DNA from: a virus
IMG/VR virus record: IMGVR_UViG_3300035698_012983
Direction: 5' to 3' (one strand)
Length of the DNA: 12,257 nucleotides
In this document: one piece after another, positions 3,109 through 3,184 of the stretch
How positions within the stretch are numbered: position 1 is the stretch's first letter
Layout of the letters: each line of letters starts with the position of its first letter
Program-made: the position numbers and the translations under genes
The notes under the pieces: model-generated
Databases searched by the model: none
The model's input: the letters and a program-made list of their open reading frames with translations, nothing else
Told to the model about the DNA's origin: nothing

Positions 3109-3184
3109 GGTGGCTCCAGAGGGATTCAAACCCTCGACCTTCTGGTTTAGAAGCAGCTGCTCTATCAAACTGAGCTATGGAGCC
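3109..3184 (-). tRNA. tRNA with anticodon CUA under canonical numbering (amber-suppressor type); CCA encoded
   Basis: Reverse complement is GGCTCCA-TA-GCTC-AGTTTGATA-GAGC-A-GCTGC-TTCTAAA-CCAGA-AGGTC-GAGGG-TTTGAAT-CCCTC-TGGAGCC-A-CCA. Acceptor stem is a perfect 7 bp, D stem 4 bp, T stem 5 bp. The D-loop A19 and T-loop U56 covary, replacing the usual G19:C56. The anticodon stem is weak (3 of 5 pairs); an alternative register CTTCT/AGAAG gives a 5-nt loop. Confidence 0.6.

Follow-up and report, generated by a model that had tools for sequence, protein, structure and literature searches.

The metagenomic virus record IMGVR_UViG_3300035698_012983 carries, within a stretch of 12,257 nucleotides (the window), a tRNA gene with the anticodon CUA, the complement of the amber codon UAG, and about 1.1 kb upstream on the same strand a gene resembling those for peptidyl-tRNA hydrolase 2 (Pth2) which contains an early in-frame TAG. 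The comparisons described here make it probable that this tRNA-CUA is a functional phage amber suppressor and that it forms, with the Pth2-like gene (PTH2), a conserved two-gene module in a genome that otherwise uses the standard code. In related loci the tRNA gene is maintained with covariation in its anticodon stem, the TAG is conserved in position and has no alternative canonical start, the two genes are tightly linked, and the relatives are without general recoding. The 12.3-kb window is essentially one entire metagenomic contig, Ga0307928_10003332 (12,261 bp). Its G+C content is 31.6% and nearly all of its open reading frames (ORFs) lie on the minus strand, as do the five tRNAs found by ARAGORN. 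The stop codons of the 21 ORFs are TAA in 18, TGA in two and TAG in one. The features discussed below are listed in Table 1.

A first description of the DNA, made from its letters only (the sequence-only reading), had placed a tRNA at 3109–3184 and left its anticodon for software confirmation. The tRNA itself stands, with its start one base off (3108) and its strand, which had not been stated, being the minus strand. ARAGORN finds a 77-nt tRNA with the anticodon CTA at position 35. The match to Rfam RF00005, which scores 60.8 bits (gathering threshold 29) and spans model positions 1–71, is the best tRNA match in the window, and its alignment has the same register, with C-U-A at positions 34–36. 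The acceptor (GGCUCCA/UGGAGCC), D (GCUC/GAGC) and T (GAGGG/CCCUC) arms, read directly from the sequence, are perfect, as first described. A73 and CCA are encoded in the gene; the genes of the other four window tRNAs lack CCA, a difference from its neighbours that had also been recognized correctly. The D loop contains G18-A19 and the T loop is UUUGAAU, with U56. The nearest relative, L013, has G19 and C56, and thus the 19:56 tertiary pair is altered on both sides in the window tRNA, in agreement with the compensating A19:U56 change that had been proposed.

The anticodon stem, GCUGC/CCAGA, has three of five pairs, G27.A43 and C31.C39 being mismatched, and encloses the 7-nt loop UUCUAAA. The sequence-only reading had given this same count and had pointed to an alternative CTTCT/AGAAG register with a 5-nt loop. 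That register is indeed the one picked by ViennaRNA for the single sequence, but it is disfavoured by family covariation. Among 53 distinct PTH2-linked tRNA-CUA genes from related loci, the pairs 28:42, 29:41 and 30:40 are formed in 51, 53 and 53, respectively, with four to five pair types each, while the pairs of the 5-nt-loop register are formed in only 15–28, which is chance level. Between the window and L013 there are compensatory changes of U29:A41 to G:C and of A19:U56 to G:C. The outer stem pairs are loose throughout the family: 31:39 is mismatched in 19 of the 53, mostly as C.A or C.C, and the C31.C39 mismatch is common to the window tRNA and that of mycobacteriophage Myrna. The exact pattern seen in the window (a mismatch, three pairs, a mismatch) recurs in seven of the 53; one of these, a close relative, carries a compensatory 29:41 change. 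In most of the family the loop is CUCUAAA. Because the stem pattern recurs and the inner pairs covary across these relatives, the weak anticodon stem is, on comparative evidence, a family trait and no sign of decay. With its 7-nt loop, U33, a purine at position 37 and a stem backed by covariation, tRNA-CUA has the features of an elongator and looks like a functional tRNA of the amber-suppressor type, which would be charged and would read UAG.

ARAGORN labels the gene tRNA-Pyl because of its anticodon only. A true tRNA-Pyl has a compact D loop, a 3-nt variable loop and a 6-bp anticodon stem, with pyl genes nearby. This identity was rejected: tRNA-CUA has a 9-nt D loop, a 5-nt variable loop (AGGUC) and at most 5 bp in its anticodon stem. 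The window contains no Pyl-related Pfam matches. A bacterial initiator tRNA, in a UAG-initiating variant, was likewise rejected; G1 and C72 are paired and the stem GCUGC/CCAGA is without three consecutive G:C pairs. All 16 huge-phage PTH2 copies examined carry an in-frame ATG before the TAG, which also bears against a UAG-initiating tRNA. No known RNA, HDV-like or theta ribozymes included, adjoins tRNA-CUA by Rfam in the window and six related loci. A search for the parent of tRNA-CUA among tRNA paralogues gave no clear candidate, Lys, Phe, Val and Thr tRNAs all having an identity of 0.68–0.76, and a search of IMG/VR with the exact tRNA-CUA sequence gave no match.

The in-frame TAG that had been seen in PTH2 is real. 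It is codon 11, at 4648–4650 on the minus strand, and is identical in the independent ENA assembly (L001). The product may be written MKDQSIGYNH-TAG-INDKLIVITRRDL..., and the sequence after the TAG is a Pfam PF01981 domain (2e-11; 44.6 bits against a cut-off of 23; profile positions 2–112 of 115) with matches in the PDB to archaeal Pth2 (1rzw, 5.6e-5), human Bit1 (1q7s) and 2zv3. No in-frame ATG precedes the TAG other than that of the leader. Beyond the TAG, the first canonical start in frame is a TTG at 4500 (codon 61), 50 codons on, and a start there would remove 49 residues, of which nine are invariant in the family. Fifteen columns downstream of the TAG are invariant across 41–72% identity, a sign of purifying selection on PTH2; the invariant residues include Q21, H24, E77-P78-D79 and T85. 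No PTH2 relative was confirmed in scans of bacterial and archaeal genomes, which thus gave no prophage or host clue.

The gene order recurs in relatives. With the 805-aa protein encoded upstream of PTH2, which resembles Major Vault Protein (MVP), as query, 13 IMG/VR loci were retrieved, one of them from a 323-kb contig. As in the window, tRNA-CUA lies downstream of the MVP gene in eight of the 13, and PTH2 sits between the two. Every PTH2 copy, including three duplicated 5' fragments, has an in-frame TAG at one alignment position, just before (I/V/T)-x-x-K-L. This position is kept in 18 homologous copies. The loci that have the TAG there include the window, L002–L007, L010, L013, L014 and four complete GenBank genomes (LR756500.1, LR756501.1, LR745206.1 and LR756502.1). 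Ahead of the TAG, one in-frame ATG opens a leader of 1–10 non-conserved codons, its commonest form being the two-codon ATG AAA followed by TAG. At 462–735 kb, the complete genomes are of the kind that Al-Shayeb et al. (2020; PMC7162821) described in the Mahaphage clade. LR756500.1 (462 kb) has ATG AAG TAG ATT, and its only tRNA-CUA genome-wide is 0.8 kb downstream of PTH2. LR756501.1 (735 kb) has ATG TCG TAG ATT, a second TAG inside the domain at codon 37, and two tandem tRNA-CUA genes downstream. The leaders of LR745206.1 and LR756502.1, both of ~640 kb, are ATG AAC AAT TAG and ATG AAA AAT TAG. Further in-domain TAGs are present in the PTH2 genes of L038 and L067.

A family profile retrieved 80 further IMG/VR loci, which fell into 57 clusters at 90% identity. 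A PTH2 gene was called gated when its TAG was at most six codons from the start of the domain and was preceded by an ATG leader no longer than 12 codons, with no canonical start after it; 31 of the 57 clusters are gated. In the 55 clusters whose downstream sequence extends to 2 kb or more, gated PTH2 is followed on the same strand by tRNA-CUA in 28 and by none in one, whereas the corresponding numbers for ungated PTH2 are five and 21 (Fisher's exact p = 2.7e-9). Two of the five ungated clusters with the tRNA in fact also carry a TAG. The tRNA begins 9–1876 nt past the PTH2 stop, and gate and tRNA are retained together across 45–73% protein identity and a wide range of G+C. The codons that follow the TAG are ATT, GTT, ATA, ACT, GTA, ACA, AGC, CTT and ATC; in 29 of the 31 gated clusters the residue encoded is I, V or T. 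Such conservation at the amino-acid level is expected for a decoded sense codon, not for a re-initiation start. A purine directly follows the TAG in 30 of the 31. In classical work, a purine after UAG is a context that favours suppression over release factor 1 (RF1). That the TAG is a decoded codon rather than an error is supported by its conserved position in the 18 homologous copies and in 31 of 57 clusters, with tRNA-CUA almost always just downstream.

Other suppressor-type tRNAs also occur beside PTH2. Ungated PTH2 genes adjoin a tRNA(UUA) in L072, L102, L104 and Lak-B7, and at ~5001–7400 of L103 (IMGVR_UViG_3300032782_000001) a PTH2 homologue with a close upstream in-frame TGA is followed by two tRNA(UCA) genes, which may be an opal-codon counterpart of the amber module. 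Since ungated PTH2 genes adjoin tRNA-CUA as well, the link between PTH2 and the tRNA involves more than the gate; judged from these arrangements, the association of phage Pth2 with suppressor tRNAs is broader than the gate itself.

Homing-endonuclease ORFs of the HNH/NUMOD type in L003 (8124–8903), L013 (1930–2691), L014 (11291–12073) and L065 (4224–5360) are joined in frame to a duplicate of the PTH2 start (leader, TAG and initial ~20 codons), immediately 5' of the intact PTH2. Because of this fusion the homing endonuclease would be amber-gated too. In L065 the TAG that gates the downstream PTH2 is also where the endonuclease frame ends.

The sequence-only reading had taken the suppressor tRNA as a mark of broad TAG reassignment in late genes. 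In such a phage (code 15, TAG read as Gln) the tRNA would serve many late genes and PTH2 would be merely one recoded gene among them. The presence of tRNA-CUA agrees with this, as do the low G+C and the preference for TAA, a reported pre-condition for recoding (Borges et al., preprint, 10.1101/2021.08.26.457843), and the inclusion of the TAG-recoded Lak phages in the Mahaphage clade (PMC7162821); moreover, this phage is known from the 12.3-kb contig alone. The case nevertheless appears unlikely. Reading TAG as sense extends only one real gene in the window, PTH2, or one of 21 ORFs; under table 11 the minus strand is well tiled by ORFs. LR756500.1 was assembled whole from ten slices, and greedy non-overlapping ORF sets were used for TAG counts. 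Tables 11, 15 and 4 give it coding densities of 91.5%, 91.3% and 91.4%, respectively, with no gain from recoding, and its stops are TAA in 536, TGA in 91 and TAG in 38 genes. Among its TAG-containing ORFs only PTH2 has an early TAG without a nearby canonical start. Credible internal TAGs are limited to two genes, PTH2 and a DUF6794 gene (394639–395049, minus strand; Pfam 2.6e-24) with an in-frame TAG at a site occupied by Trp in 19 of 24 homologues. This TAG looks like a change from TGG that the suppressor tRNA makes tolerable, or it may hint at the amino acid inserted.

The wider sample agrees with LR756500.1. Its terminase, identified by motifs, served as bait for 40 related contigs, in which the terminase-neighbourhood genes contain two in-frame TAGs against four TAAs in 140,155 aligned residues, and hence no excess. 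In the flanks of the 31 gated clusters TAG is used as a stop 45 times. Coding density there is 80.5% under table 11 and 83.9% under table 15, a gain that comes from artefacts: the long TAG-containing ORFs in L105 and L081 were rejected as high-GC non-coding frames, and the one in L065 as the homing endonuclease-PTH2 fusion. A motif scan, the only search made for a co-encoded release factor 2 (RF2), found no GGQ[HSNA][VI]N in an open frame of LR756500.1 or the window. Free recoding would also be expected to swap TAG with CAA or CAG rather than hold it at one position while neighbouring codons diverge. As read from the relatives and from the window of this phage, the clade uses the standard code, and recoding of late genes is not supported.

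It is also conceivable that the TAG ends a tiny upstream ORF, as in a minigene or start-stop, that PTH2 is re-initiated at a non-canonical codon such as ATT, and that tRNA-CUA is unrelated. ATT can initiate in some bacterial genes, such as infC, and it follows the TAG in 15 of 31 clusters. Mycobacteriophages ScottMcG and Myrna have an annotated GTG directly after the TAG with a Shine-Dalgarno sequence at suitable spacing, and the two-codon leaders resemble the bar minigenes of phage lambda. Other clusters, however, have ACT, ACA, AGC, CTT, GTT or GTA after the TAG, which are not starts but give conservative I/V/T residues. Re-initiation could not avoid the in-domain TAGs of LR756501.1, L038 and L067, and it leaves the strong co-occurrence with tRNA-CUA to one side; we consider it quite improbable. 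Decay of both genes, with the tRNA a crippled, misfolding pseudogene and PTH2 a nonsense-mutated one, would fit the three-pair anticodon stem, the minimum-free-energy fold, which is not a cloverleaf in the anticodon arm, and the DUF6794 TAG of LR756500.1, which resembles a simple TGG to TAG mutation. It is hardly credible in view of the recurrence of the stem pattern in seven and of the 31:39 mismatch in 19 of 53 relatives, Myrna included, the compensatory changes that keep both the stem and the 19:56 pair, the purifying selection on PTH2 after the TAG, with its 15 invariant columns, and the retention of the TAG position in dozens of lineages. A prfB-type programmed +1 frameshift at the PTH2 TAG was rejected, as the domain continues in the same frame.

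In the two-gene module as we see it, translation of PTH2 would begin at the ATG and reach the UAG after the short, non-conserved leader. Ribosomes would enter the hydrolase domain only if tRNA(CUA) out-competed the host RF1, and the Pth2-like enzyme would be made only when the phage suppressor tRNA was active and in rough proportion to that activity. We infer, from comparison of the loci, that tRNA-CUA is charged and reads the UAG of PTH2, and by analogy with known systems that the amber codon acts as a sensor or gate. Our preferred guess for the enzyme is a dose-matched clean-up of peptidyl-tRNA and stalled-ribosome products that would arise when true TAG stops are read through. The data agree just as well with a homeostatic loop, in which the suppressor tRNA would itself be the target of the enzyme.

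Several observations weigh against this interpretation. The window tRNA has only three pairs in its anticodon stem, and its minimum-free-energy fold in ViennaRNA is the CUUCU/AGAAG stem with a 5-nt loop. The support for expression, charging and read-through is comparative. The co-occurrence statistic is inflated by shared ancestry, the gated loci being largely one clade. A gated gene without a nearby tRNA-CUA exists (L059); in the complete genomes no tRNA-CUA was seen within 20 kb of PTH2 in LR745206.1 or within the 6 kb examined in LR756502.1. Conversely, ungated PTH2 genes with an adjacent tRNA-CUA occur in L089, L093 and L111. The position of the canonical Pth2 catalytic Lys (GK motif) is variable in the family (Y/Q/I/S/V/L), and the NCBIfam equivalog cut-offs are missed (NF003314, 37.9 bits against 126; TIGR00283, 31.2 against 82); these two findings make the substrate of the enzyme uncertain. 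The catalytic residues of Pth2 from S. solfataricus are reportedly the Lys of the GK motif and the Asp of DAG. D79-x-G of the phage protein resembles DAG, and because the Lys is not conserved the substrate may differ from that of classical Pth2.

A gate alone also gives the phage no reason to keep a suppressor tRNA, and for this reason tRNA-CUA probably has a further role, possibly in the read-through of TAG stops in host or phage genes or in the tolerance of TAG mutations, to which the gate would couple Pth2-like activity. Tolerance of TAG mutations is the pre-recoding stage proposed by Borges et al. (10.1101/2021.08.26.457843). More tentatively, and with the odds against it, the three parts of the module (amber codon, suppressor tRNA and Pth2-like enzyme) might constitute a natural self-sensing circuit, in which the UAG would measure the balance between suppressor and RF1 and the enzyme would either handle the effects of suppression or work directly on the suppressor tRNA at its ester bond. 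Such an ancient Mahaphage module could have been the foothold for full TAG reassignment in Lak-like phages.

As to the amino acid inserted, A73 is near-universal among the related tRNA-CUA genes. Bacterial tRNA-Gln identity involves G73, and A73 argues against a bacterial Gln, Glu or Trp identity. A73 therefore speaks against Gln, Glu and Trp as the residue that would be inserted and would allow Lys. Opposite the extra TAGs, aligned PTH2 sequences have polar residues (E/S/Q/T/N/D, D/E and S/T/K), and aligned DUF6794 sequences have Trp.

Phage suppressor tRNAs have usually been explained as agents of whole-genome recoding or left as orphans. With the TAG-recoded phages, the Lak megaphages and crAss-like phages of code 15, the present phage has in common a tRNA-CUA, a low-GC, TAA-preferring genome of the Mahaphage group and at least one gene in which TAG would be read as sense. 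It differs in that TAG is still a stop elsewhere, with one gene in the window and two in the 462-kb relative needing read-through, in that the TAG is fixed at one position, not scattered, and in that A73 misfits bacterial tRNA-Gln and no RF2 was found in the motif scan. Comparable, too, are the standard-code jumbo phages with orphan amber suppressors, among them Xanthomonas phage XacN1 (PMC5852040) and the cluster C mycobacteriophages ("tRNA Sup CTA"), which likewise have both a tRNA-CUA and a peptidyl-tRNA hydrolase gene. The authors of the XacN1 study found no targets for their amber suppressors (PMC5852040). The XacN1-like Stenotrophomonas phage CM1 differs in having a PTH2 homologue without a TAG and no tRNA within 6 kb. 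In ScottMcG and Myrna tRNA-CUA is 150–300 nt downstream of a PTH2 homologue and a TAG directly precedes the start of that gene, but the codon after the TAG is a canonical GTG and gating is not demonstrated there.

Likenesses to other translational controls can be drawn. The prfB gene, for RF2, is also a gene for a termination factor with an early in-frame stop (UGA) whose decoding sets its own output, although this is an analogy only: prfB uses a +1 frameshift and senses its own product, whereas phage PTH2 keeps its frame and would sense a separate, co-encoded tRNA against the host RF1. The lambda bar minigenes and host pth(rap) similarly tie very short phage ORFs (ATG, one or two codons, stop) to peptidyl-tRNA hydrolase, but bar minigenes are free-standing and toxic via peptidyl-tRNA drop-off, while the phage mini-ORF is in frame with a Pth2-type gene, to which read-through would join it, and in the window has a leader of 10 codons. 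Synthetic feed-forward gates combine an early amber codon with a co-expressed suppressor to give conditional expression (PMC7969014); they are engineered, and the PTH2 module would be natural and evolutionarily conserved.

Phage suppressor tRNAs and Pth2 in jumbo phages (PMC7824862) were already known, and the Borges et al. preprint (10.1101/2021.08.26.457843) contains the idea that recoding regulates expression. The searchable literature yielded no account of a suppressor tRNA paired with a conserved, amber-gated Pth2 gene. The UAG of PTH2 offers a concrete, conserved target for a phage suppressor tRNA in an apparently standard-code genome. Should the gate prove real, it would show a virus in nature switching the translation of a single gene by means of its own suppressor tRNA, it would tie suppression mechanistically to peptidyl-tRNA and ribosome-rescue housekeeping, and it would provide a testable intermediate stage for the onset of stop-codon reassignment. 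The amber-gated PTH2 module is widespread and directly testable. Standard gene callers truncate or miss such genes; the ENA calls for L001 have no gene at 7357–7722.

Table 1. Positions of features in the window
Feature	Position	Strand	Evidence
tRNA, anticodon CUA (elongator type, predicted to read UAG)	3108–3184	-	ARAGORN, Rfam RF00005, family covariation
Perfect palindrome TAAGGGGAATTCCCCTTA, beginning 2 nt upstream of the tRNA-CUA 5' end	3186–3203		Sequence
Three small ORFs between PTH2 and tRNA-CUA: 4112–4315 (67 aa), 3657–3971 (104 aa), 3395–3667 (90 aa)	3395–4315	-	No family matches
Tandem repeat AATGTCTAAGTA, 4.2 copies, intergenic between two of these small ORFs	4010–4059
Pth2-like gene, 122 codons including the 10-codon leader and one in-frame TAG; TGA stop at 4312–4314	4312–4680	-	Pfam PF01981, PDB matches, translation
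Putative gating amber TAG, followed by ATT (Ile)	4648–4650	-	Translation, relatives
Leader ATG AAA GAT CAA AGT ATT GGT TAC AAT CAT (MKDQSIGYNH)	4651–4680	-	Translation
TATATAA motif, ~20 nt 5' of the leader ATG	4699–4705	-	Upstream strings
MVP-like protein, 805 aa	4951–7368	-	MVP shoulder (1.5e-27), Vault_3 repeat and SPFH domains
GOLLD RNA, full length	8814–9303	-	Rfam RF02032, 163.5 bits against 150
tRNA-Leu(UAG), embedded in GOLLD RNA	9156–9228
Tandem repeat TTATTTTCAAA, 3.6 copies, intergenic, downstream of the GOLLD locus on the coding strand	9834–9874
Sub-threshold match to bacterial small signal recognition particle (SRP) RNA	11364–11446	-	32.4 bits against 40, E = 0.0012, full model

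Around the module itself, the TATATAA motif 5' of the PTH2 leader may be a promoter element; motifs resembling it, GATATATAA, precede the leader in L013b and L003b. The palindrome next to the tRNA may form a processing or terminator hairpin that would part tRNA-CUA from the upstream ORFs. Family searches with the three small ORFs of the PTH2-to-tRNA interval gave no matches. They look like insertions into a once-contiguous module of PTH2 and tRNA, because in many relatives the tRNA comes 9–150 nt after PTH2.

Elsewhere in the window, the MVP-like protein is conserved, with 50–75% identity, among related huge phages such as LR756500.1 and LR756501.1 (735 kb); that phages should have a gene of the vault-protein kind is unexpected. 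The GOLLD RNA is the sole match above threshold among the window and the six related loci scanned, and the first two acceptor pairs of the tRNA-Leu(UAG) embedded in it are mismatched. The SRP-like match begins 2 nt downstream of tRNA-Leu(AAG) and could be due to chance or to a divergent structured RNA.

The relatives have further unusual features. LR756500.1 encodes a transfer-messenger RNA (tmRNA; 36902–37312 of L015; Rfam, 95.5 bits) with the tag GNNAEMRMAA. It lies in a tRNA-rich region 17 kb from the PTH2/tRNA-CUA pair and adds to the set of ribosome-rescue genes. In the 323-kb relative, L002, ARAGORN finds tRNA-like genes with 4-base (ttga, gaca) or 2-base anticodons at 896–970, 4457–4551 and 7559–7630. 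The terminase gene of LR756500.1 (194236–196122) is extended at the N-terminal end, and the L113 copy of this gene contains an interruption of ~0.9 kb. Between 182 and 262 kb, LR756500.1 also contains at least seven paralogous ORFs of ~550–650 aa, with repeated modules of the KETNLERYGV type and a conserved, nuclease-like C-terminal region, which look like an expanded family of homing endonucleases.

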